NCBI GenBank assembly: GCA_001782825.1 | Contig: MFPS01000006.1 | Span: 84,553 to 148,552 of the forward strand | DNA: 64,000 nucleotides | Reading direction: 5' to 3' | Origin: Candidatus Magasanikbacteria bacterium RIFCSPHIGHO2_01_FULL_33_34 | Lineage (GTDB): Bacteria; Patescibacteriota; Patescibacteriia; Magasanikbacterales; UBA922 | Shown here: piece by piece, positions 1-64,000 of the stretch | Layout: the number at the start of each line of letters is the position of its first letter | Numbering within the stretch: the stretch's first letter is position 1 | The notes under the pieces: model-generated | What the model was told of the DNA's origin: nothing | The model's database searches: none | Seen by the model: the letters and a program-made list of their open reading frames with translations, nothing else | Made by a program: the position numbers and the translations under genes

Positions 1-74
1 ATTACCATTGCATTAATTATAAATCAAGATCAAAAACTCGTTCCTTCTTGCAAAGAAACGAGTTAATAATTATA

Positions 75-974
75 TTAAAAATCTCCTGGATTTATATAGA
101 TATTGTCATCAAAAAAATTGATTATGGGTATAATTCTAAAATTATTAAACTCTGCTACTTGACTAAAGTATCTCAATTCTACACTCTCGGTTGAAAATGC
201 TGCCATTTTTTCAAAGTACAAATAAACATACCCTATGACTTGACTTCCATTTAATAACTCAACCAAAAATACCGGTTCCCAATAATTAAAAGCTGAACTG
301 TTTATTAAATCAAAAGAAATAACTGGAAAAGATAGGCCAGACAAAGATGCATCACTCACTATAAAATTATCTGCCTGAAACAAATTTCTTTCTGCAATAA
401 AATTCTTCACATCTGGCACATCATGAGCATCCACTGACTCCCATTCTATATTATCAATTACAAAATTTGTATTGGCTGGAAATGCATTACTCTCAACACC
501 AAATAATGCTACTGGTCTCTTTGATAAAGGAATAATAATAGCTGTCTCAATTTGACTTTCTATACCAGAATATACAAAATGATAAGTTACTTTAGCTATC
601 CATCTTTCATTTGGATTTTGTATACTTGCCACAAAATCATACATATTCTCAGAAGTAGCAAATACCCGAACATCTGCCACATTTAAATCTTGAGCTTTGT
701 AAATTTCTTGTATACTTGAATAATTCTGGTTTGTCTGCGTATATTTTGCCAAATATTCTTGATCATTCCAATAACCAAAAAAGAGATATTCCCCCCATTT
801 CCATAAACCAAACCCATAAAATACAACACACAATGTAATCAAAAAGCCTATAAAAATTTCGCGAAATAATTCTCTGTGAAGTAAATACCATGTACCAATT
901 TTTAATTGACGACTAGAAAATTGTCCACTCGTATCTACATACTGATCTATTTTACTTTTTTTGTGTTCTAACAT
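75..974 (-). CDS. Hypothetical membrane-anchored protein (single N-terminal TM helix), immediately downstream of the giant surface-protein gene
   Basis: 299-aa ORF. Hydrophobic segment FIGFLITLCVVFYGFGLW near the N-terminus. No recognisable catalytic motif. Confidence 0.5.
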   Translation of the reverse strand: MLEHKKSKIDQYVDTSGQFSSRQLKIGTWYLLHRELFREIFIGFLITLCVVFYGFGLWKWGEYLFFGYWNDQEYLAKYTQTNQNYSSIQEIYKAQDLNVADVRVFATSENMYDFVASIQNPNERWIAKVTYHFVYSGIESQIETAIIIPLSKRPVALFGVESNAFPANTNFVIDNIEWESVDAHDVPDVKNFIAERNLFQADNFIVSDASLSGLSFPVISFDLINSSAFNYWEPVFLVELLNGSQVIGYVYLYFEKMAAFSTESVELRYFSQVAEFNNFRIIPIINFFDDNIYINPGDF

Positions 975-1030
975 ATTACTTTCAATAAGTAATATATATT
1001 ATACAATAAAACTGAGAAGAAATAAATCTT

Positions 1031-1066
1031 TTATAAACAAAAGGAAAGAAAATAAATTTCTTTCCT
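1031..1066 (-). terminator. Rho-independent terminator after the giant gene (10-bp stem aggaaagaaa/tttctttcct, U-rich tail on the minus strand)
   Basis: Perfect inverted repeat 1042-1051/1057-1066, followed on the minus strand by tttgtttat. Confidence 0.5.
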
Positions 1067-1107
1067 AATGAATGTCAAAATATTAATGAAGTATTTATTT
1101 GGACAAT

Positions 1108-4100
1108 TTATTGATAAAGTGGAAGAGTTGCAACTGTAGTTGGCAAAGCATTGTTATACAATGTTTGACCACTTCCGTTTACCAATGTTAATGTACCGCC
1201 ACGATTAGTATTACTAAATCTTACAGTAGCTACACTACCATTACTAAAGTTAATAGTAGCACCAGTTTCAGTAGCAGTATTATTAGATACTACTGAAGAG
1301 ACTGCATTGTCCACTCCAATCACATGCAAGAACAATGATTCAGTTCCATTAGTTCCTACAGCTTCCGCTCTCACACCGCTAAATACTGGCACAGTTGTCC
1401 AAGGAATTCCCGCTGGAGACAATCTCCAAACATCCGCTCTTTGTGAACCCTGTACAAAGGTTAATCTATTGCCAGAAATAATTGGTGGCGTTGACATCTG
1501 CAATTGGAAAATTCTAGAAACACTTGAAGAATTTGCAGCAGCCCGATCAAACAATACTACTGCCCCAGATTTAATAAACAATAATTCACGTTCTGATTTT
1601 ACCACTTCAGCTTTACCATTATATATTGGTCTAGTATTAGCCAACTCATAAGAGAACAAATTGCCATCAGACAAAGCTAGCACTTGAGATGGAGTAGCTC
1701 CCTCTACTTGCCTTACAGTATTTCCACCAGAACTAAATCGTACCAAATTGTGCATCTCTTCATCTAATTCAATACCACTATGAGATCTACGATTGGCATC
1801 ATCAAATAACCAAGTACCCGCAGAATTGAGCAAGAACGAACCTTGATCCCTATGTGCATGACTTTGATCATAAGGACCAGCCATCATATGCACGAATACT
1901 CCATTCTTTTCCCAAGAAGAACGAGAATAAAAATTACCACTTCCTGTACCAAAATAAGCAGTATTAATAGTAGAAAGAGGTCTAGTAGTAACAGATGGCC
2001 ATTCATTAATAAAATCTGACCAATAAGTAGCGCTATACTGTATTCTAGGAACATTAGATGAAGCAAGAAGTTGTTTGGCTACCCCAGAAATAGGCTCATT
2101 TGGATAAATAGAGATTAAATTTTGTAACAAATCTCTATGATAATCATAGAACTCTGCAGTTTGATCACGAGAATGATCACCAGTTGGAACTATTTTATCT
2201 AATGAAGGCATTACAGAATGAGTAAACCAAAACATTGTAGCTAGAGTATGAGGAGTCTGATTTGCAATACTCACACCTGTTGATTTTTCCCACCAGAAAT
2301 ATAACTTAAACAAACGTCTCAAAGCAGTTCCATAACCAGTACCCTCACGAGAACCACCTCCTGGTAAAATATTAAATGCTGGTATCAATTGATTGATAAT
2401 TTTTTCACCATAAAATTTATCCAGCCATTTTTGTGCTTCAGGATTATTGCCATAAGTAGCTAAACCTGTAAACATTGTCGCTTCCAAGAAAGAATAATAA
2501 TAATTATTATATGGATCATCAATTGACCAACCTGACCAAGGGTAAGAAACACCACCCCAACGAACATCTTCTGGATCACCCCATAAATTATTTAGAACTA
2601 AGTTCATATAATTAACCCATCTAGTTCTCTGTGATGGAGTTAACAAATCATATGCAAAGTCATAAACCAAAGCTATGTCGCCCAATTCATCACCTACTTC
2701 CAAAAAGCTGTCCCGTGATATTGTTGCTCGTTGACCAGCATTTATTCTAGCTTCTTCTTCGGCCACATATCTATCTATATTTGCTATAGCAAAATTTCCA
2801 TACCTCGCTTCACCAGTAAGACGGTACATCAATGCTGCACCCCAATTTGCAAATGCATAATTTGTACCTGGATGAGCTAATTCATTATCTATCATTGTTT
2901 TATATCTAGAAGCACCAGGAGAATTTGTAGTTAAAGCATTTTGTAATCTAGAAAGTGTAGCCGTGTCATTAATAAGAACATAAGGATGAGTAGTTGCTAA
3001 AGGTTTTACAGATGAAACCTGTACTACTGGAGTAGGTGTTGGTGTAGGTGTTGGAACTGGAGTTGGTTCTGGTACTGGCGCAATTATTGGTTCTGGCTCA
3101 GGCGCTGGTGCTGGCGCTGGCGCTGGGGTTGATTGAGCAACCAAATAATTTTCAACTGAATAACCATCGGCACCACTATCATAATTTATTTGCCACCAAT
3201 TATACCCACCTTGAGCTACTGGTCCACTTACTACCGATCCTTGTGATCCAGCTGATTGTGTTCCTAACAATGTACCAGTAATTGTAGGTGTTGATCTTAC
3301 ATTTAAGTTCGCAGTTGTCTGTACTCTTTGACCTACTGTAAACATCCCTAAAGTTGGAGTTGTAGTAATAACCGGGGTTGGAGTTGGTGTAGGAGTTGGC
3401 GTTACACTTGCCACAGAAGATAATCCACCATCATATCCAATGGTTGAACGCATCCACCAATTAAATTTACGAGGAGGGTTTACTCTATACTTTGGTAAAT
3501 AAGTTGTAGTACGAGTCGCATCAGTAAACGCAAACACTGCACAATTTCTCAACTGTGCTCTACGATTAATTAAAGCATCAGTCGATTGACCAAGTATCTG
3601 TTTTGCTTCTATAGCAAATGAAATTAAACCTGAAACATCCAAACAGTGATCAAAATCACCTTCACTTGGAGTTTCTGGGGTATAAGGACCAGTAGGACCA
3701 ACTAAATAATATGCAGCCGTTAATCCAGCATAAGTATCATCTATAACACTACCATCAAAATAAGCATTTTGTTCCATCCAATCTGCGTAACGAGAAACTT
3801 GTTGTAATACTTCAGTATTTCCAGTAAGAGAATAAAGTCTACGAGCAGCTTGGAAATATAAATTACTCATCCAAGGACTTGTGATTAACTGTGATGGACT
3901 ACTACCACCACCCTCATGCTGATCAATTGTTGTTAATGGCACTCCACCACCAAGGTTAGACCGTGAAGTCCATTGATTTACTAAAGCATTAATACGAGTA
4001 AGAGCTGATGGATCTCTTGTTAAATCATACCAAGATACCGCTGTTTCAAGAGCAAAACCAATTTCGCGTTCTGTCCATAAACCTCCACTTGAATAAGTGC

Positions 4101-6357
4101 TAGAAAAATCAGATACTGAAAAATTATAAATTCTTTGAGCAATTGAACGGTATTGATCATCACCAGTTTCTCTTTCATAAAGAAGAAAAGGAGTTACATA
4201 TCCGTATTTTCCATCTTGTTCTCCTGTTTTTGGAGTAAAGTAACCACCTGAACTTATGTGATTTCTATAATATTCAAAATCAGATAAAAATTGTTGATAC
4301 CAACGAGCTTTATCTGTAGATGATACAGAACGTTTATACATATAATAAGCAACTGAAGCTCTATCAAACAACCACGGTTCATAAATTGTTTCTCCATAAT
4401 TCCAATTTCCATAACCAGATGTAAATCTAGAATCAACATTATGTCCTTCAAAATTCCAATTTCTTGCCCAAGTTTCAGCAAATTTAACTAAAGGAGCATC
4501 TGCAGGGTCATTAAGATTGAATGGAGCAAAAGTAGGCACAGAACTACCAGTCAAGATAGGTACTGGAACTGGTGAAGGAGTTGGTGTAATGACTGGGGTT
4601 GGAGTTGGATCAAGTACTGGAACTGGAGTTGCCACAGCAAACAAATAATTTTCAACCGAATAACCATCGGCACCACTATCATAATTTATTTGCCACCAAT
4701 TATATCCACCTTGGGGCACTGGTCCACTAACTACTGTTCCTTGTGATCCAGCTGATTGATTTCCTAATAATGTACCAGTAGTTGCTGGTGTTGCTCTAAC
4801 ATTTAAGTTTACAGTTGTTTGAACTCGTTGACCTACTGTAAATACACCTGAAGTTGGAGCTGGTGTAGGTGTAGGAGTTGGTGTAATGACTGGATTTGGG
4901 GTTGGGGTTGGGGTTGGGGTTGGGGTTGGTGCTGGTTGAAAAACTGGCAAAGAAATACCAGGTAAAATTACTGAAACATCATCTAACATCAAACCTGTCA
5001 AAGGTTGACTACCTTCTTGGAAAATACCCACGCGAACTCTAGATAAATCACGAGTATTATCAAGAGGAAAACTAAGAGTAATACCTTTATTACCTAATGT
5101 ACTAGGTGCCTCAGAACAATTTTGTACAAATCCTCCACCAAGATACTCTATCAAACCACAAAATGAAATTTTAGATGTTGAATTTACAGTTACACGAACA
5201 CTAGCAGAAGCTGTAAAATGAGATGACCTTCTGGTAGTAAAAGTTGAAAAATCTCTACCACTCCAAAGCACACTATCTCCATAACCAGAAGTACCCACTA
5301 ATAAACTTCTATTACCATTAATTGGATTATTAGTAACCACAGAGACAGAAGTTCCAGATTGATTTGGTTCAAAATTTGAAAGACTATTTTCAAAACCAGA
5401 ATCTTCAAGCAAATTTACTCCTGTTGCAGTAGGCGCTGGTGGTAATGGCTCAGTTTTTTGTGCACTACAGCTAGCAGAAGTACCACCATTTATACCAACA
5501 CAAGTCCAATTCCAAGGACCTGATCCAGAAACAGAGCTAGACGCACCAGTAGAACATAAATTGGTAGTTGGTATACTTGATACAGTAGTACCATTAACTG
5601 AACCACAAACACCATTTACTAAAATTGGGGTTGGGGTTGGTTCTGGAGTTGGGGTAGGAGTTGGAGTTGGAGTTGGAGTTGGAGTTGGGGTTGGAGTTGG
5701 GGTTGGGGTTGGGGTAGGAGTTGGGGTTGGAGTTGGGGTTGGGGTTGGAGTTGGCGTAGGTTCTGGAGTTGGCGTAGGTGTTGTAGAAGTACCACCAGAC
5801 AAAACTACTGAAACATCATCAATCATTACTCCTGTCAAACGATCACTACCTTCTTGAAAAATACCAACACGAACTCGTTCTATGTCTTGAGAAATATCAA
5901 GCGGGAAAGTGACTGAAACAGTACCTTTATAACCCATTGAACCAGAAACTTCAGAACATTCTATAATATATTGTCCATTAGTATATTCTACTAAACCACA
6001 AAATCTAATACCTGAAGCAGAATCAACTGTAGCTCGAATTCTAACAGAACCAGTAAACTGAGAAAATCTTTTACTACTAAAATTTAAAAGATTGCTACCA
6101 GACCAAAGTACACTATCACCATATCCAGAAGTATTTATTAATAAACTTCTTGAACCATTGATTGGACTATCACTAGTTAAAGAAGCAGATGTTCCATTTT
6201 GATTGGGTTCAAAATTTGACATACTGGTCTCAAAGCCAGGATCACCAACTAAATTATCTGTAACTATATCAGCCCTAACAATAGTAAAAAATGATGGCGA
6301 ATAAAACACCAAACCAAATACTATCATTAAGGCAAAAAATATTAACGATTTTTTCAT
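1108..6357 (-). CDS. Giant secreted multidomain protein (1749 aa). Signal peptide, two CBM-like beta-sandwich modules, two SH3b-like modules, an alpha-rich domain, an alginate-lyase/heparinase II/III-like module (HxHxDxxSF motif) and a C-terminal beta-rich region, all joined by (TP)n/(AP)n linkers.
   Basis: N-terminus [20 protein letters not shown] is a signal peptide. The module VGDPGFE...IDDVSVVL is repeated (aa about 30-190 and 320-480). The module [50 protein letters not shown] is repeated twice. [12 protein letters not shown] matches the Hepar_II_III HxHxDxxSF signature, and an alpha/alpha-toroid-like region precedes it. Long TPTPTP linkers are present. Confidence 0.8.
4897..4935. repeat. 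(GGGGTT)5 hexanucleotide tandem repeat inside the giant gene (encodes a PTPTPT linker on the minus strand)
   Basis: ggggttggggttggggttggggttggggtt is read directly. Confidence 0.8.
5625..5790. repeat. About 165-bp imperfect hexanucleotide tandem repeat (GGNGTT units) encoding a (TP)n linker of about 50 aa
   Basis: ggggtt/ggagtt/ggcgta units repeated about 27 times. The opposite-strand GVGV ORF (5561..5857) is an artefact of this repeat. Confidence 0.85.
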
Positions 6358-6597
6358 ACAAAATGATTAAATAAAATAAATTTTAATAAATTAAAATAAT
6401 TATTTTAAATCTGCCTTTTGAAAACAAAGATAAAATATATTTATTAAGTATACAATATAGTTTAAAATAAGTAAACTACCATTTACCACCAATAACAAAC
6501 GATACGTATCAAAACTACTTAAATACAAAACCAATATGCCCTTGTACAAGCTACAAATTTATGTTACAATATTGCTACTAAATGAATCATAATCTGA

Positions 6598-8724
<2,127 letters not shown>

Positions 8725-8747
8725 TTATATAATTTTAATAGACAAAT

Positions 8748-9158
8748 ATGCCATCAGAAAATTTAAAAACTAATGATACTACCATGTCAGAACAAGAAAA
8801 AATTATAACACAGCAAGAAAAAGAAAAAACATTAAAACAAAAAGAAGCAGTACAATATAAAGTAATGGAAAAATTGGGTTTTTTACCAAATAATTTTGAT
8901 CCAAAAAACTATGAATCACCAGATGTTGATCAAATAAAAGTTTTACGATGGAGCCAAACTGAAGATGAAAGCAAAGATATAGAAACAAAAACAAAAGAAG
9001 AACCAGTAACAAACGCAAAAATCTTTAGAGAAGCATACAATGATCCTAAAATTAATGAATTTGCCGGCAAAACAATACCAGAAAATGAACTAGATAACAT
9101 AGTTGACAAGATTGTTAAAAAAATGATTTCAAACCCGAAAGCATTAATTTTAAATTAA
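8748..9158 (+). CDS. Hypothetical Lys/Glu-rich protein
   Basis: 136-aa ORF with no recognisable motifs. Confidence 0.35.
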   Translation: MPSENLKTNDTTMSEQEKIITQQEKEKTLKQKEAVQYKVMEKLGFLPNNFDPKNYESPDVDQIKVLRWSQTEDESKDIETKTKEEPVTNAKIFREAYNDPKINEFAGKTIPENELDNIVDKIVKKMISNPKALILN

Positions 9159-9204
9159 ATTTTAATAAAATTGTAACAAAATAAATAATTATCCACTCGG
9201 CTAC

Positions 9205-9233
9205 TTGACAAAATACCAAATATATAGTATATT
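9205..9233 (+). promoter_or_regulatory. Sigma70-like promoter upstream of secE (TTGACA-17-TATATT)
   Basis: ttgaca at 9205-9210, a 17-nt spacer, then tatatt at 9228-9233. A short GGCC-GAA-GGCC hairpin plus T6 lies between it and the secE start. Confidence 0.4.
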
Positions 9234-9276
9234 ATACCTATCAAATTGGCCGAAGGCCTTTTTTAAATACTTAAAT

Positions 9277-9468
9277 ATGAAATTAATAAAAAGCCTAAAA
9301 GACTATTTTGTCGGTGCATATCAAGAAGGCAAAAAAATCGTTTGGCCAAACAAAAAACAAGTAAAGACCTACACCATACTTGTTATTGCAATGAGTCTAG
9401 GAGTAGCCGTATTTTTTGCAATTTTAGACTATGTTTTCAATATCGGTCTAGGCCAACTAATCAAATAA
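9277..9468 (+). CDS. secE: Preprotein translocase subunit SecE (start taken at the internal Met; the ORF-track 5' extension is probably not translated)
   Basis: MKLIKSLKDYFVGAYQEGKKIVWPNKKQVKTYTILVIAMSLGVAVFFAILD is the classic SecE KxVxWP motif plus a single TM. It sits immediately upstream of nusG. Confidence 0.7.
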   Translation: MKLIKSLKDYFVGAYQEGKKIVWPNKKQVKTYTILVIAMSLGVAVFFAILDYVFNIGLGQLIK

Positions 9469-9479
9469 TTAACATCTAT

Positions 9480-10025
9480 ATGGCTAAACAAACCTTAAAC
9501 CTCGGCCGTAGATGGTATGTACTTCATACATACAGCGGTTACGAGGAAAATGTAAAAAGAAACCTCGAACAACGTATTGCTTCTTTTGACATGCAAGATA
9601 AAATTTTCAGTGTAATGGTACCAAAAGAGAAAAAAATAAAAATCAAAAATGGTAAACGCCAAGTAATAGAAGAAAAAGTATTTCCTGGATATGTGCTTGT
9701 AGAAATGATAGTAACAGATGATTCTTGGTATGTAGTTCGCAATACTCCAAATGTAACTGGATTTATCGGTTCTGGAACGACTCCAGTATCAATTGACCCA
9801 AAAGAAATGCTCAAATTACAAGGCCGAATGGATGTATCTGAACCATCACACAAAATCGATGCTGAAATTGATGATAATGTAAAAATTACTGACGGACCAT
9901 TCAAAAATTTTGAAGGTAAGGTCAGCGCAGTAGATGAAGCTAGAGGAAAAGTAAAAGTATTGGTATCTATGTTTGGTAGAGAAACTCCGGTTGAATTAGA
10001 CGCTTTACAAGTTAAAAAGTTATAA
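9480..10025 (+). CDS. nusG: Transcription termination/antitermination factor NusG (start at internal Met 9480; the ORF-track start at 9342 overlaps secE)
   Basis: RRWYVLHTYSGYEENV...FPGYVLVEM (NGN domain) and the C-terminal KOW domain GRETPVELD...V. Confidence 0.9.
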   Translation: MAKQTLNLGRRWYVLHTYSGYEENVKRNLEQRIASFDMQDKIFSVMVPKEKKIKIKNGKRQVIEEKVFPGYVLVEMIVTDDSWYVVRNTPNVTGFIGSGTTPVSIDPKEMLKLQGRMDVSEPSHKIDAEIDDNVKITDGPFKNFEGKVSAVDEARGKVKVLVSMFGRETPVELDALQVKKL

Positions 10026-21161: not shown

Positions 21162-21707
21162 TTATTTCTTCCAAATCACATCTTCGTGATTATTTTTTTT
21201 ATTCAACCAACGTCCTAAAACAAAAAGCACATCACTCAAACGATTCAAATATTGTCCTATATGTTTATCAATACTAGGATATTGTTTTTTGACAGTAATA
21301 AAAACTCGCTCCGCACGACGACATATAGCCCGAGCAAAAAAACTCTGCGCTGAAGAAACACTTCCCCCTGGTAAAATAAAATTATGCAATGGCTCCAAAT
21401 CATTCTCCATTTCATCAATCCAATTTTCCAAATCAATTATAGCTGAATCTTTTAAACTCGGCACCATACCCAATTCCATATCAATAGACGCAATATTTGC
21501 ACCAACTACAAAAAGATTATGTTGAACATCAATCAATTTTTTCTTAACATCATTTTCACTATCCAACAATGAAACCAAAACTCCAACAGAGGCATTCAAT
21601 TCATCCACTTCACCCAATGCTACGACTTCTAGACAATTCTTTTCAACCCTCTTACCCAAAAGTGATGTTTCTCCTCCATCCCCAGTTTTTGTATAAATTT
21701 TTGACAT
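21162..21707 (-). CDS. ATP:cob(I)alamin adenosyltransferase, PduO/MMAB type
   Basis: MSKIYTKTGDGGETSLLGKRVEKN...GEVDELNASVGV matches the PduO-type N-terminal YTRTGDKGETSL motif. 181 aa. Confidence 0.7.
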   Translation of the reverse strand: MSKIYTKTGDGGETSLLGKRVEKNCLEVVALGEVDELNASVGVLVSLLDSENDVKKKLIDVQHNLFVVGANIASIDMELGMVPSLKDSAIIDLENWIDEMENDLEPLHNFILPGGSVSSAQSFFARAICRRAERVFITVKKQYPSIDKHIGQYLNRLSDVLFVLGRWLNKKNNHEDVIWKK

Positions 21708-23013: not shown

Positions 23014-26000
23014 TTAACTACAACCAAGTGAGTCACCACAGTTCAGACATTTATAACAAGCTCCATTTCTCACAGTAATATGACCACAGGTTGGACAAGC
23101 TGGCGCATCACCGTCCATACTACTAAGGGCTTGATCAACCACATCTACTGTATTAGTTTCCATTGTGATCAATAATTCTTGTTCTTCTAAAGATCTTTCA
23201 ATTACTATATTAGTTGCTTCTGATTTTAATTCCATTGTTTCTTGTTTGACACTACTATCCAAGATCTTTGCCATTTTCTCAAATCTATTTTTTTGAATTC
23301 CAGTTGGTTTTACTTGGACAAAATCAGTTCTTCCCAAATATTCCATTCCAAGTACACGAAATACAAAATCTAAAACCGAAGTACATATCTTGATATTCGG
23401 GTGATCTGTCATTCCAGCTGGTTCAAATCTAGTGAAAACAAAATTATTTACATATTTTTCAAGTGGAACACCATATTGCAATCCCATGGAAACTGATATA
23501 GCAAACATATTCAAAATACTTCTAAAGGCTGCGCCTTCTTTGTACATATCAATAAATATCTCGGCCAATCTACCATCTGGATATTCACCGGTACGAAGCC
23601 AAATTTGTTGATTTCCAATTTTAGCAGCTACAGTTATACCACTTCTCTTTGCTGGTACTTTTCTTTTTTCTCCATGCAAATATATTCTGTGATCAGTTAC
23701 TGTACCATCATTTTCATAAGTCGGCATCGCGTGTGAATCTGGGATATGTTGTTTCAAAAGTCTACTTGCTTCAAAAATTGCTCGGCTTATTTCAGAATCA
23801 TTTAGTGTTGCGCCAACTTCTTGAAGTTCACTTTCAATTGTAGCACTAGTTTCCACAACTACCGGCTCTTTCACTTCTTCTTTTTCTGATTCAGTTTTTT
23901 TGCTTGAAGTAGAGAGTGGTTGGCTAAGTTTACAGCCATCACGATATAGTGCCACTGCTTTCAAACCTTTGCGCCAAGATTCATTGTAAGCATGTTTAAT
24001 ATCATCAACCGTTACCTCATTTGGCATATTAATTGTTTTTGAAATTGCGCCTGACAAAAATGGTTGAACCGCAGCCATCATTCTCACATGACCCATATAA
24101 TGAATAGATCTCAAACCATTTTTTCCACAACGATTAGCACAATCAAATACTGGATAATGCTCTTGTTTCAAATGTGGAGCGCCCTCAATAGTCATTGTTC
24201 CACAAACATAATTATTTGCTTCATCAATTTGTTCTTGAGTAAAACCAAGAGCTTTAAGCATTTGAAAATTTGGATCATTGTATTGCTCCTTTGCAATTCC
24301 TACTCTTTGCATACACTCTTCACCAAGTGTCCAAACATTAAATACAAATTGGATTTCAAAAGCACTCTTCATCGCGCCTTTTAACTTTTCTAAGTCACCA
24401 TCAGTAAAACCTTTTTCCTTGAGAGTTGTAGTATTTATTTGTGGAGCGCTAGCTATATCAGCTGTGCCTTTTGTGTAATTCAAAATATCTTGTATCTCTG
24501 CATCTGTGTATTTCAAATTTTTCAAAGCTACTGGTACTGCTTCATTTACGATTTTAAAATATCCTCCACCAGCAAGTTTCTTAAATTTAACTAATGCAAA
24601 ATCTGGCTCAACTCCAGTAGTAGCACAATCCATCAAAAGACCAATCGTTCCAGTTGGCGCCAACAAAGTTGTTTGCGCATTCCTATATCCATATTTTTCA
24701 CCCCAAGAAAGTGCCTCATTCCAACTCTCTCGAGCAGCGGCCAACAAATATGCTGGGGCAAATTCTGGATCAATCCCAACTGGTTTAATCGTTACTTTTT
24801 CATATTCGCTATCAGCAACATTAAATGTAGCTCGTCTATGATTGCGCATTACTCTCAACATATCTTCTCGGTTGTAATCAAATTTTGGAAATGTCCCCAA
24901 AAATCTAGCCAACTCTGCACTTGTCCTATACGACTCACCTGTCAAAAGAGCGGTAACTGAACCAGCAAAAGCATAAGCTTCTTCTGATTCATATGGTATC
25001 CCCGATGTCAAAAGTACACTTCCCAAATTTGCATAACCCAATCCCAAAGTTCTGAAATCATAACTCATCTGAGCAATTTCTTTACTTGGGAATTGTGCCA
25101 TCAATACACTAACCTCAAGTACAACTGTCCAAAGACGAGTCGCATGTTTAAAAGCATCTACCAAAAATTCTTGTTTTTCTACATTGAAAAAATGAGCTAA
25201 ATTCAAAGATGCCAAATTGCAAGCAGTATTATCCAAAAACATATACTCACTACAAGGATTTGAAGCATTGATTCTGCCTGATTGTGGACAGGTGTGCCAA
25301 TCATTGATTGTACCGTCAAATTGCACTCCTGGATCAGCACAAGCCCAAGCAGCATAAGACACCTTGTCCCACAATTCTTGTGCTTTCATTGTCTTGCAAG
25401 CAGTATTATCAGTTCTCCACAACAAACTCCAAGAACCATCACGTTCCAAGGCTTCCATAAACTTATGTGGAACCCGAACTGAATTATTTGAATTTTGACC
25501 AGATACTGTCTGATACGCCTCACCTTCATAATCTGATGTATATCCCGCAACCATAAGAGCGGCCACTTTTTTTTCTTCTTCTACTTTCCAATTTATAAAT
25601 GCCTCAATATCAGGATGATCAAGATCAAGGACACACATCTTGGCAGCACGACGTGTGGTCCCGCCAGACTTGATGGCACCAGCAGACCTGTCACCGATTT
25701 TCAAAAAGCTCATCAAACCGCTAGATCGTCCGCCACCACTCAAAGGCTCACCATTGCCACGCAAACCTGAAAAATTTGTCCCTGTTCCAGAACCATATTT
25801 AAATAATCGAGCTTCACGAACCCACAAATCCATAATTCCACCTTCATTTACCAAATCATCTTTAACTGATTGAATAAAACAAGCATGTGGTTGTGGATGA
25901 GTATAGGCATCAGTAGATTTTGTAAGCACGCCTGTGTCTGGATCAATATAATGATGACCTTGAGCTGGACCATTTATTCCATAAGCCCAATAAATACCAG

Positions 26001-26514
26001 TATTAAACCACTGTGGTGAATTTGGCGCGGCCATTTGACGGAGTAACATTACTACAATCTCATCATAAAAAATCTGCGCATCTTTGGCACTTGCAAAATA
26101 CCCATACTTCTCACCCCAATATCTCCATGTGCCGGCCAACCTATGAATTGGTTGCTTTGCACTTGTTTCAGGCCCAAGCATGGGTGTCCCGTCATCGTGC
26201 ATTTTAATGGTACCATCAGCATTGTGTTGTGGTACGCCGGCTTTACGGAAATATTTTTGTGCCATAATATCAGTAGCCACTTGTGACCACTGTTTTGGTA
26301 TCTCAATATCTTTCATTTCAAATACAACCGTACCATCTGGTTCACGAATAACAGAACTTCTTTTTTCATATTCAACCATATCATACGCACTCTTTCCCTC
26401 TACACTAAATTTGCGCTGAAAACGCATAGCATTTTCATTGTATAAAAAATCTTTTTCACCTTCGGTTTGCCCAAGATGAAGATTTTGGATAAATTTTGAA
26501 TCGACAGGTCCCAT
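23014..26514 (-). CDS. nrdJ: Ribonucleoside-diphosphate/triphosphate reductase, class II (adenosylcobalamin-dependent) large single-chain form, with a C-terminal zinc ribbon
   Basis: RNR 10-stranded barrel active-site region NPCSEYMFLDNTACNLASLNL. The protein is 1166 aa with no ATP-cone plus NrdB context. C-terminal CPTCGH...CYKCLNCG. A PduO adenosyltransferase is encoded 1.3 kb away. Confidence 0.7.
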   Translation of the reverse strand: MGPVDSKFIQNLHLGQTEGEKDFLYNENAMRFQRKFSVEGKSAYDMVEYEKRSSVIREPDGTVVFEMKDIEIPKQWSQVATDIMAQKYFRKAGVPQHNADGTIKMHDDGTPMLGPETSAKQPIHRLAGTWRYWGEKYGYFASAKDAQIFYDEIVVMLLRQMAAPNSPQWFNTGIYWAYGINGPAQGHHYIDPDTGVLTKSTDAYTHPQPHACFIQSVKDDLVNEGGIMDLWVREARLFKYGSGTGTNFSGLRGNGEPLSGGGRSSGLMSFLKIGDRSAGAIKSGGTTRRAAKMCVLDLDHPDIEAFINWKVEEEKKVAALMVAGYTSDYEGEAYQTVSGQNSNNSVRVPHKFMEALERDGSWSLLWRTDNTACKTMKAQELWDKVSYAAWACADPGVQFDGTINDWHTCPQSGRINASNPCSEYMFLDNTACNLASLNLAHFFNVEKQEFLVDAFKHATRLWTVVLEVSVLMAQFPSKEIAQMSYDFRTLGLGYANLGSVLLTSGIPYESEEAYAFAGSVTALLTGESYRTSAELARFLGTFPKFDYNREDMLRVMRNHRRATFNVADSEYEKVTIKPVGIDPEFAPAYLLAAARESWNEALSWGEKYGYRNAQTTLLAPTGTIGLLMDCATTGVEPDFALVKFKKLAGGGYFKIVNEAVPVALKNLKYTDAEIQDILNYTKGTADIASAPQINTTTLKEKGFTDGDLEKLKGAMKSAFEIQFVFNVWTLGEECMQRVGIAKEQYNDPNFQMLKALGFTQEQIDEANNYVCGTMTIEGAPHLKQEHYPVFDCANRCGKNGLRSIHYMGHVRMMAAVQPFLSGAISKTINMPNEVTVDDIKHAYNESWRKGLKAVALYRDGCKLSQPLSTSSKKTESEKEEVKEPVVVETSATIESELQEVGATLNDSEISRAIFEASRLLKQHIPDSHAMPTYENDGTVTDHRIYLHGEKRKVPAKRSGITVAAKIGNQQIWLRTGEYPDGRLAEIFIDMYKEGAAFRSILNMFAISVSMGLQYGVPLEKYVNNFVFTRFEPAGMTDHPNIKICTSVLDFVFRVLGMEYLGRTDFVQVKPTGIQKNRFEKMAKILDSSVKQETMELKSEATNIVIERSLEEQELLITMETNTVDVVDQALSSMDGDAPACPTCGHITVRNGACYKCLNCGDSLGCS

Positions 26515-26575
26515 AAAATTATGATTAAGATTTTAATTTAAGTTACAAAAACGCCTTGCCATGGCGTTCAATCTT

Positions 26576-26623
26576 TTACTATATATAGTGGTATAAATAT
26601 ATTTTAACCACTATATATTGTGT
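26576..26623 (-). promoter_or_regulatory. Candidate tandem NrdR boxes upstream of nrdJ
   Basis: ttactatatatagtgg (26576-91) and ccactatatattgtgt (26608-23) match the NrdR-box palindrome acaCwAtATaTwGtgt in 13/16 and 15/16 positions. Centres are 32 bp apart, 62-110 bp upstream of the nrdJ ATG. Confidence 0.5.
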
Positions 26624-26874
26624 TATATGCGGGCAACATTTATTATAGCACACAGAATAAAACTAGCCAAATCCATATCCCTTTTGCTCTTTTTAACTAA
26701 CCCAAGCTGTTATTTTTTATTATGAGTCGCAAAATATTATACTTATCCACAATCAAAAATATTACAAACACAATTAAATATAAATTATTAGAAATTAAGA
26801 AGTCCTAATCAAGGAAATTCTAAAGCGAGGAGGACAGTACAAATAAATGTAGTTTCAAAAATGTCATACAACAA

Positions 26875-26914
26875 AAGCCATTAGCTTGAGAGAAATCTCG
26901 CTAATGGCTTTTTT
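26875..26914 (+). terminator. Plus-strand rho-independent terminator 40 bp upstream of ruvB, with no annotated upstream plus-strand gene
   Basis: 11-bp stem aagccattagc/gctaatggctt plus T6. Confidence 0.55.
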
Positions 26915-26953
26915 GACTTTAAACGCTCTTCAACGTAAAATACAAATATATTT

Positions 26954-28021
26954 ATGCTAAATGAAGAAACATACAATTTAGAAAATGAAGAACCACGATT
27001 GATCACGCCAGAAGAAATTGTAGATGAACAAACTATTGAAATAAATCTGCGTCCACAAACTTTACTAGAATTTATTGGACAAGACCATATAAAGGAGCCA
27101 CTCTCAATCTCAATTGAAGCTTCTAAAAAAAGAAATGAATCCATTGAACATGTACTACTTTATGGAAATCCTGGTCTTGGAAAAACTACCCTTGCAAATA
27201 TCATTGCGCGTGAAATGGGTTCAAATATTCGCATAACAGCTGGTCCAGCTCTAGAACGAGTCGGCGACCTAGCTGCTATACTGTCCAACCTTGAAGCCGG
27301 TGATGTACTTTTTATTGACGAAATTCATCGTATGAACAAAACCATTGAAGAAGTAATGTATAGTGCAATGGAAGATTATGCACTAGATATAATAGTTGGC
27401 AAAGGTCCAGCAGCGAGAACTTTGCGAATGCCACTTGAACGATTTACACTGATCGGCGCAACCACAAAATTAAATTTATTATCCAGTCCATTACGAGACC
27501 GTTTTGGCCATGTATATCACCTAAACTTTTATGAAAATGATGATATTAAAAAAATTGTTCACAGAAGTGCATCTATACTAGAAATGGATATCAAAGACAA
27601 TGCATCTGATATCATATCCAGTCGTTCACGTAGAACTCCACGCGTAGCTAATCGTCTACTTCGAAGAGTCCGAGATTATGCTGAAGTCCGACATAATGGT
27701 ATAATATCAGATGAATCTACCATTGAAGCTTTAACAATGTTAAATGTAGACAAACATGGACTAGATGAAGTAGACAGAAAAATTTTAACTTGTATTATTG
27801 AAAAATTTGATGGTGGCCCAGTTGGTCTCAATACACTAGCCGCTGCTATAGCTGAAGATATGGATACTATTGAAACCATTTACGAACCATATCTTTTACA
27901 AATCGGTATGTTAGAAAGAACTCCTAGAGGCAGATTAGCGACTCGCACAGCCTATGATCATATAAATGTAACCAAACGCGAATCTACTAAACCTAAAAAT
28001 TTTAAAGGCTGGAAAATGTAA
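26954..28021 (+). CDS. ruvB: Holliday junction branch-migration helicase RuvB
   Basis: [19 protein letters not shown], Walker [17 protein letters not shown], and the sensor motifs. Confidence 0.95.
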
Positions 28022-63515: not shown

Positions 63516-63944
63516 TTAGTTTTCTACTTGGATTGATACTAGACCTTTTTTATTATCGCTCCATAGATAGCCGGTATATTTTTTAAGGTTTGGTGGTTCT
63601 ATTTTTAAATAAGTTTTTGGTTTATTAAAGAGAATAATCGTTTTGTATTGTTTTTTACTGATTTGTTTTTTCATTGAACATTGGTCTAAATTTCCTGAAA
63701 GGATAATTTTTTTGAATTTTAAACAAGAATTAAAAATTTGGTTGCCAAAAACTTCCATATTTTTAATAAACAAAATACGCTCATTGATATCATTGAGTTT
63801 TTCTATAGCTGATAAAAAAAGTTTTTCATTAGCACTTTCCAAAATAATTGCTTGTGTGTCGGTATTGAGTTGGCTTTCATCAGTGATATAAGCAGTTTTT
63901 GATTCATAGCCATTAATTTGTTGCAAAAAATTATCTTTGGCCAT
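63516..63944 (-). CDS. Hypothetical protein (may extend beyond the annotated Met towards the window end)
   Basis: 142-aa ORF. No motif. Confidence 0.35.
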   Translation of the reverse strand: MAKDNFLQQINGYESKTAYITDESQLNTDTQAIILESANEKLFLSAIEKLNDINERILFIKNMEVFGNQIFNSCLKFKKIILSGNLDQCSMKKQISKKQYKTIILFNKPKTYLKIEPPNLKKYTGYLWSDNKKGLVSIQVEN

Positions 63945-64000
63945 CGGGTATGCGGTTAAAAAGAGAATTTTTGATCCTTTTAAAAACAGATCAGCAAGCA

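Follow-up and report, generated by a model that had tools for sequence, protein, structure and literature searches.

Two 16-bp boxes upstream of the ribonucleotide reductase (RNR) gene nrdJ in a Candidatus Magasanikbacteria genome very probably form an operator for NrdR on the nrdJ promoter. This reading, which is drawn from sequence comparison and to which a probability of about 0.88 is given, is favoured because the boxes fit the NrdR consensus, are unique as a pair in the window, have an RNR gene as their target and leave a phylogenetic footprint, and because NrdR occurs in sister Patescibacteria. The relevant features are as follows, with coordinates counted in the window, i.e. the whole 64,000-nt stretch of DNA analysed (G+C content 33%), and with positions relative to the predicted transcription start of nrdJ given by a plus sign.

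23014–26514, minus strand: nrdJ, adenosylcobalamin-dependent (class II) ribonucleotide reductase, 1166 aa
26545–26568, minus strand: leader hairpin, AACGCC-auggcaa-GGCGUU followed by UUUGU, approximately +68 to +91
26576–26591: gene-proximal candidate NrdR box (box 2), reading ttactatatatagtgg on the plus strand and CCACTATATATAGTAA in nrdJ orientation, approximately +45 to +60
26592–26607: 16-bp spacer between the boxes, reading ttaaaatatatttata in nrdJ orientation
26608–26623: promoter-proximal candidate NrdR box (box 1), reading ccactatatattgtgt on the plus strand and ACACAATATATAGTGG in nrdJ orientation, approximately +13 to +28
26642–26670, minus strand: predicted nrdJ promoter, comprising the -35 element TTGGCT (26670–26665), a 17-nt spacer and the extended -10 element TGcTATAAT (26650–26642)
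26913–26918 and 26936–26941: ruvB promoter, TTGACT and TAAAAT

The nrdJ promoter region and its two boxes

The product of nrdJ scores 1238 bits against PRK06556 (cut-off 859) and 583 bits against TIGR02504 (cut-off 400) of NCBIfam, and as both curated cut-offs are exceeded, the naming of the downstream gene as nrdJ in the initial annotation is upheld. The only Pfam matches of the protein are PF08471 (Ribonuc_red_2_N), PF02867 (Ribonuc_red_lgC) and PF12637 (TSCPD), and the ATP-cone domain is absent from these Pfam matches. The second gene after nrdJ, likewise on the minus strand (21162–21707), encodes a PduO-type cob(I)alamin adenosyltransferase (TIGR00636, 169 bits), and thus a gene for synthesis of the adenosylcobalamin cofactor neighbours, on the same strand, the enzyme requiring this cofactor. 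There is no recognisable Shine-Dalgarno sequence before the nrdJ start (26515–26544), while the start itself is conserved (MGPVDSKFIQ...).

An NrdR site consists of two partially palindromic 16-bp boxes (PMC9110341, PMC12051234, PMC13584703, PMC12176259), in which the six positions C4, A6, A8, T9, T11 and G13 are highly conserved (PMC13584703). The canonical spacer measures 15–16 bp (PMC12051234, PMC13584703), lengths of 14–17 bp are tolerated (PMC12051234), and a second optimum lies one helical turn further (PMC9110341, PMC12051234, PMC13584703, PMC12176259). Such sites overlap the polymerase binding region or the transcription start of RNR operons (PMC9110341, PMC12176259).

Compared with the NrdR consensus ACACWATATATWGTGT, the box at 26576–26591 has three mismatches and that at 26608–26623 has one, and re-reading of the sequence thus returns the 13/16 and 15/16 matches counted in the initial annotation. 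All six of the highly conserved positions are present in each box, whichever strand is read, and the outer flank of the box at 26576–26591 is off consensus, with GTAA where GTGT is expected. The starts and the centres of the boxes are 32 bp apart, which corresponds to approximately three helical turns from centre to centre; the canonical tandem arrangement with centres at this distance had been proposed before, and the 16-bp spacer confirms it. The boxes had also been placed 62–110 bp upstream of nrdJ, and the distance to its ATG (26514) is measured here as 62–109 bp. The pair therefore shows the box form, the six positions, the spacer, the location at an RNR promoter and, as described below, the conservation at orthologous promoters that characterise an NrdR operator.

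A consensus scan predicts an nrdJ promoter matching 10 of 12 positions, with a TG preceding the -10 element. The predicted transcription start lies near 26635, and the ATG then falls at about +122. Box 1 starts 18 nt past the predicted -10 element in the window, and this distance is 18–20 nt in all relatives; with the start predicted from sequence, the box would occupy +13 to +28, within the usual polymerase footprint. Both boxes are thus predicted to lie downstream of the -10 element, at approximately +13 to +60, and not upstream of the promoter. This position is within the known range, since the functional box pair of Escherichia coli nrdAB likewise extends downstream of its promoter (PMC12176259, PMC12051234).

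The gene ruvB diverges from nrdJ at 26954, and a strong hairpin (26873–26915, on both strands) sits between the nrdJ and ruvB promoters, where no annotated gene ends. It has a 13-bp stem with a flanking A-run and T-run, a dG of about -23 kcal/mol and z-scores of -5.5 and -4.5. Upstream of it, the plus strand contains a 28-aa ORF (26722–26808), the sequence GAGGAGG (26827–26833, in the same intergenic region as the nrdJ leader) and an ATG-TAG start-stop (26847–26852). This region could be an unannotated small gene, an sRNA or an insulator between the divergent promoters. Several assemblies break where the window ends on the right (63944–64000). A Fic protein and a tyrosine integrase are encoded in the DNA past this end (L243, positions 1–9999; L091–L093), which points to a strain-variable island.

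Occurrence by chance and conservation among relatives

In an intergenic region of a 33% G+C window, the boxes might be regarded as AT-rich palindromes arisen by chance, and the loose regular expression with which published work looks for box pairs in 500-nt upstream fragments does match 350 times in approximately 1.7 Mb. This expression is non-specific in AT-rich DNA, and weight is therefore placed only on the full 16-bp match, which never arises in shuffled sequences: with at most one mismatch, the 64-kb window contains one match vs 0.00 expected from 100 dinucleotide-preserving shuffles. With at most three mismatches there are six matches vs 2.15 expected, and lone weak matches therefore mean little.

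A position weight matrix (PWM) trained solely on boxes from other species gives 22.2 bits for 26608–26623 and 17.7 bits for 26576–26591, which are the top two 16-mers of the window, the third (13.4 bits) being located inside gyrB. Summed as a tandem at 32 bp, the two boxes reach 39.8, while the runner-up place in the window reaches 3.0 and the maximum in 100 shuffles is 16.2; the PWM scan finds no further NrdR tandem in the 64-kb window. Across 1.62 Mb, comprising the window and the fetched loci, box pairs (each box with at most four mismatches, at most six in sum, spacing 10–60) occur upstream of nrdJ only, and all are spaced 32–33 bp. As the score of 39.8 also exceeds anything obtained from shuffled DNA, and as an equivalent pair occurs at the equivalent place in 14 of 15 relatives, an origin of the boxes by chance is hardly conceivable.

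These relatives come from a genome scan with NrdJ, which yields 15 Patescibacteria loci, mostly labelled Magasanikbacteria, with 62–85% protein identity, and 65 more distant loci with approximately 58–62% identity, which are mostly Bacteroidota and include a few Thermomicrobiales, one Vulcanimicrobiota (L022) and one Brevundimonas. Of the 15 Patescibacteria loci, 14 have two boxes ahead of nrdJ that are spaced 32 or 33 bp and reach a tandem score above 20. Two loci outside the PWM training set score 26.9 (L015) and 22.5 (L022, the Vulcanimicrobiota locus), and in the 64 other nrdJ loci, mostly Bacteroidota, no tandem score exceeds 20, the best being those of two Thermomicrobiales (19.3 and 16.8). 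The initial annotation had named the absence of nrdR together with a motif not conserved upstream of nrdJ in relatives as grounds against its reading; as the motif is conserved in 14 of the 15 Patescibacteria, that reading is not refuted. It is supported by the identity of nrdJ, the six positions, the 16-bp spacer and this conservation.

In an alignment of 14 sequences, the conserved blocks are a -35-like TTGgc, the extended -10 element TGnTATAAT, box 1 and box 2, the most invariant block being TGnTAtAaT, and the flanks upstream and downstream of this promoter-box unit are not conserved. The spacer measures 16 or 17 bp in the relatives, and the inner flanks of the boxes (GTGG-T ... A-CCAC) are the better conserved ones in this lineage. 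The spacer sequence itself (26592–26607 and its counterparts in relatives) is also non-random in this lineage: the T that follows GTGG is almost invariant, the first half is rich in A, and TTT stands 5–7 nt before the second box, often with a TCAAAA...TTTTGA palindrome as the result. For NrdR of E. coli and Streptomyces coelicolor, the linker sequence is reportedly immaterial in published tests.

A generic box-pair pattern is unfit for scans of sequence collections, as it gives at least 120 matches even among viral contigs. At least 120 viral contigs of IMG/VR (L094–L213) have NrdR boxes in canonical tandem, spaced 32 bp; some of these contigs have 50–64% G+C, a composition at which AT-rich matches would seldom arise by chance. 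By a crude test, only three of the contigs have an RNR-like gene in their stored stretch. Host NrdR operators seem to be widely exploited by phages.

NrdR in Patescibacteria and comparison with known operators

Searches by regular expression, by tblastn and two HMMs, and through precomputed Pfam labels find no nrdR gene in the 82 kb formed by the window and its 10-kb flanks, or approximately 7% of the 1.17-Mb genome. The tblastn queries were NrdR of E. coli and Bacillus subtilis, and neither these nor the regular expression and the HMMs give a match in 96 fetched loci. There is likewise no ATP-cone protein in the 10-kb extensions left and right of the window, no nrdR within 10 kb of nrdJ in the 15 relatives, and no ftsA, ftsZ or nrdD in the 82 kb read that would offer a route to nrdR through synteny. 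When proteins are searched with an NrdR profile built from three species, Enterobacterales and Bacillus alone are returned.

An NrdR scan of IMG/VR yields a Patescibacterial contig with an nrdR-nrdDG operon (L217), the NrdR of which was used as a query together with that of a relative of low G+C content, detected in metagenomes with a DNA pattern reflecting codon bias. These queries retrieve 230 Patescibacteria NrdR clusters, each containing both the Zn-ribbon (PF22811) and the ATP-cone (PF03477), and carrying the names Candidatus Falkowbacteria, Patescibacteria group or Parcubacteria. None of the 230 is named Magasanikbacteria or lies on the contig of this genome, and the representative search with cluster look-up gives no Magasanikbacteria label for NrdR. 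In the Falkowbacteria-type loci (L217, L225–L227, L230 and L246–L253), the conserved gene order is secDF, Wzy_C, prepilin peptidase, ftsA, ftsZ, nrdR, nrdD, nrdG. The segment SIRRRRECLKCGFR(F/Y)STYEE of the Zn-ribbon is invariant in a sample of 18 Falkowbacteria-type NrdR sequences and, among the first 120 NrdR matches, is conserved to 90% or more.

In Falkowbacteria-type lineages, the nrdR-nrdD-nrdG operon follows ftsA-ftsZ and opens with nrdR. It is preceded by a box pair of its own, which has a 17-bp spacer and begins approximately 8 nt past a TACAAT -10 element, from which it is read that nrdR is autoregulated in these Patescibacteria. As the sister lineages contain both nrdR genes and cognate box pairs, NrdR and its operators are taken to be in use in the superphylum. 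Besides the superphylum, these operons (L217, L225–L227, L230 and L246) share with nrdJ the box style (ACAC/CCAC ... GTGG/GTGT) and a tandem located directly downstream of the -10 element. They differ in the 17-bp spacer, in the shorter distance of approximately 8 nt between the -10 element and the boxes, in the class III RNR that they encode, with nrdR first in the operon, and in the lack of a leader hairpin.

That nrdR is located neither in the 82 kb read nor in any named Magasanikbacteria could indicate that a different DNA-binding protein recognises the boxes, or that they are relic sites in a genome having lost NrdR. No other factor is known for the NrdR-box motif, however, and both boxes retain the six diagnostic positions together with the exact spacer, while unused sites would not stay conserved across lineages with NrdJ proteins 62–85% identical. 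Given also that the search covered only about 7% of the genome and that NrdR is common in sister lineages, a different factor or a relic is improbable, and the conservation of the sites points to an nrdR gene in this genome, elsewhere than in the 82 kb read.

With NrdR as the ligand and its gene assumed to lie elsewhere in the genome, regulation of nrdJ may be envisaged on the model of NrdR from S. coelicolor, E. coli, Listeria and Streptococcus. Binding of dATP and ATP to the ATP-cone would give an NrdR tetramer, of which one Zn-ribbon dimer would occupy each box, the DNA being bent or kinked. NrdR bound at approximately +13 to +60 would overlap the downstream footprint of the polymerase and could thereby block initiation and open complex formation, or promoter escape. 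Loaded with ATP alone, NrdR would assemble into higher oligomers that leave the DNA unbound, and nrdJ would be transcribed. As NrdJ itself lacks an ATP-cone, the control of deoxyribonucleotide supply by dATP/ATP feedback would fall to NrdR.

The closest parallel among characterised systems is the nrdRJ operator of S. coelicolor, for which the cryo-EM structure of an NrdR tetramer on DNA is available (PDB 7P3F; PMC9110341). It likewise comprises two 16-bp partial palindromes separated by approximately three helical turns in the promoter region of a class II RNR, with C4 and G13 present in both boxes (PMC9110341). In S. coelicolor, however, nrdR is co-transcribed with nrdJ, whereas no nrdR occurs within 10 kb of nrdJ here or in the 15 relatives. 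The S. coelicolor boxes lie over the transcription start, whereas those described here begin approximately 18 nt past the -10 element, and the inner flanks GTGG-T...A-CCAC are a feature of this lineage unlike those of S. coelicolor.

The box pairs of E. coli nrdAB, nrdHIEF and nrdDG and of Listeria monocytogenes nrdDG are similar in their 15–16 bp spacers and overlap the RNA polymerase binding region (PMC12176259, PMC12051234). Their targets are class I and III RNRs, whereas nrdJ encodes a class II enzyme, and their promoters are also under the control of Fur, Fnr and DnaA, none of which is evident at nrdJ. NrdR binding has been measured in E. coli and Listeria, whereas the nrdJ operator is predicted from sequence.

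The leader hairpin and implications for reduced genomes

The leader hairpin starts 7–8 nt past the second box and resembles an intrinsic terminator. Hairpins with different stems, followed by 6–7 U, are present at the equivalent place in L007, L008, L009, L020 and L021, while L010 has a stem identical to that of the window, followed by three further U. A hairpin is thus found in 7 of the 14 sequences, with six distinct stems (the window and L010 sharing one), at 72–95 nt from the start of box 1. In these loci, terminator-like sites have a background density of 0.84 per kb of strand, which amounts to approximately 0.025 expected per slot. In the window, 30 nt separate the U-run from the nrdJ ATG, and no second promoter is evident between them, so nrdJ must be read through the hairpin. 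A few of the window's other intergenic regions between divergent genes contain comparable hairpins on the leader side.

As the boxes are predicted to be transcribed, are mutually complementary and are followed directly by this terminator-like hairpin, they might act as RNA by forming a 16-bp leader hairpin, e.g. in concert with the terminator-like one, and the predicted leader does fold into a hairpin of box 1 with box 2 and a second hairpin (dG -25.7 kcal/mol, z = -3.3). Any two similar palindromes are complementary by construction, however, and the 14 sequences contain 74.6% paired cells vs 74.5% in column shuffles, with 285 of 500 shuffles at least matching the observed value. At the W positions 5 and 12, the two boxes change independently of each other, which leaves 8–10 of the 14 sequences unpaired there, and each box separately keeps the protein-binding consensus. 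The lack of covariation between the boxes thus argues for DNA palindromes rather than an RNA helix.

Rfam contains no matching family either: its models give no credible match to 26450–27000 (the best E-value, 0.12, belonging to microRNA models) and only tRNAs in the window and the loci of seven relatives. A role of the boxes as RNA is hence very improbable. A known riboswitch in the nrdJ leader is rejected, as Rfam has no match there.

An NrdR operator at the DNA level thus remains the preferred reading of the boxes, with the leader hairpin left unexplained by simple repression. As a tentative and rather unlikely extension, the operator may be half of a two-tier leader, in which the hairpin is an attenuator responding to a second signal or part of a short leader RNA controlled by NrdR. 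An attenuator might sense, for example, B12 status, a protein factor or nucleotide pools. Such an RNR attenuator was found neither in the literature nor in Rfam, and the hairpin is the only feature here that might lead somewhere new.

Bacteria of the candidate phyla radiation (CPR) possess very few transcription factors and rely on scavenged nucleotides and cofactors. The genome analysed belongs to this radiation (Patescibacteria), and its description as reduced in the initial annotation is apt. Exact look-ups find the window in groundwater assemblies from the Rifle aquifer and in NCBI metagenome-assembled genomes named Candidatus Magasanikbacteria (OGH59840/OGH59887 and three sibling genomes; GCA_001784315.1). 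No literature pairing NrdR with Patescibacteria, CPR or Saccharibacteria was found, and the operator is therefore a new record for the group, though one fitting bacteria generally. The regulatory element is ordinary and the organism unusual; a specialist would not be surprised by the former.

The promoter-box unit upstream of nrdJ offers a clean promoter-operator model for organisms whose promoters are hardly described. A conserved NrdR operator on a B12-dependent RNR would indicate that dATP/ATP feedback persists after extreme genome reduction and, as NrdJ is here without an ATP-cone, NrdR would be the sole feedback of this kind.
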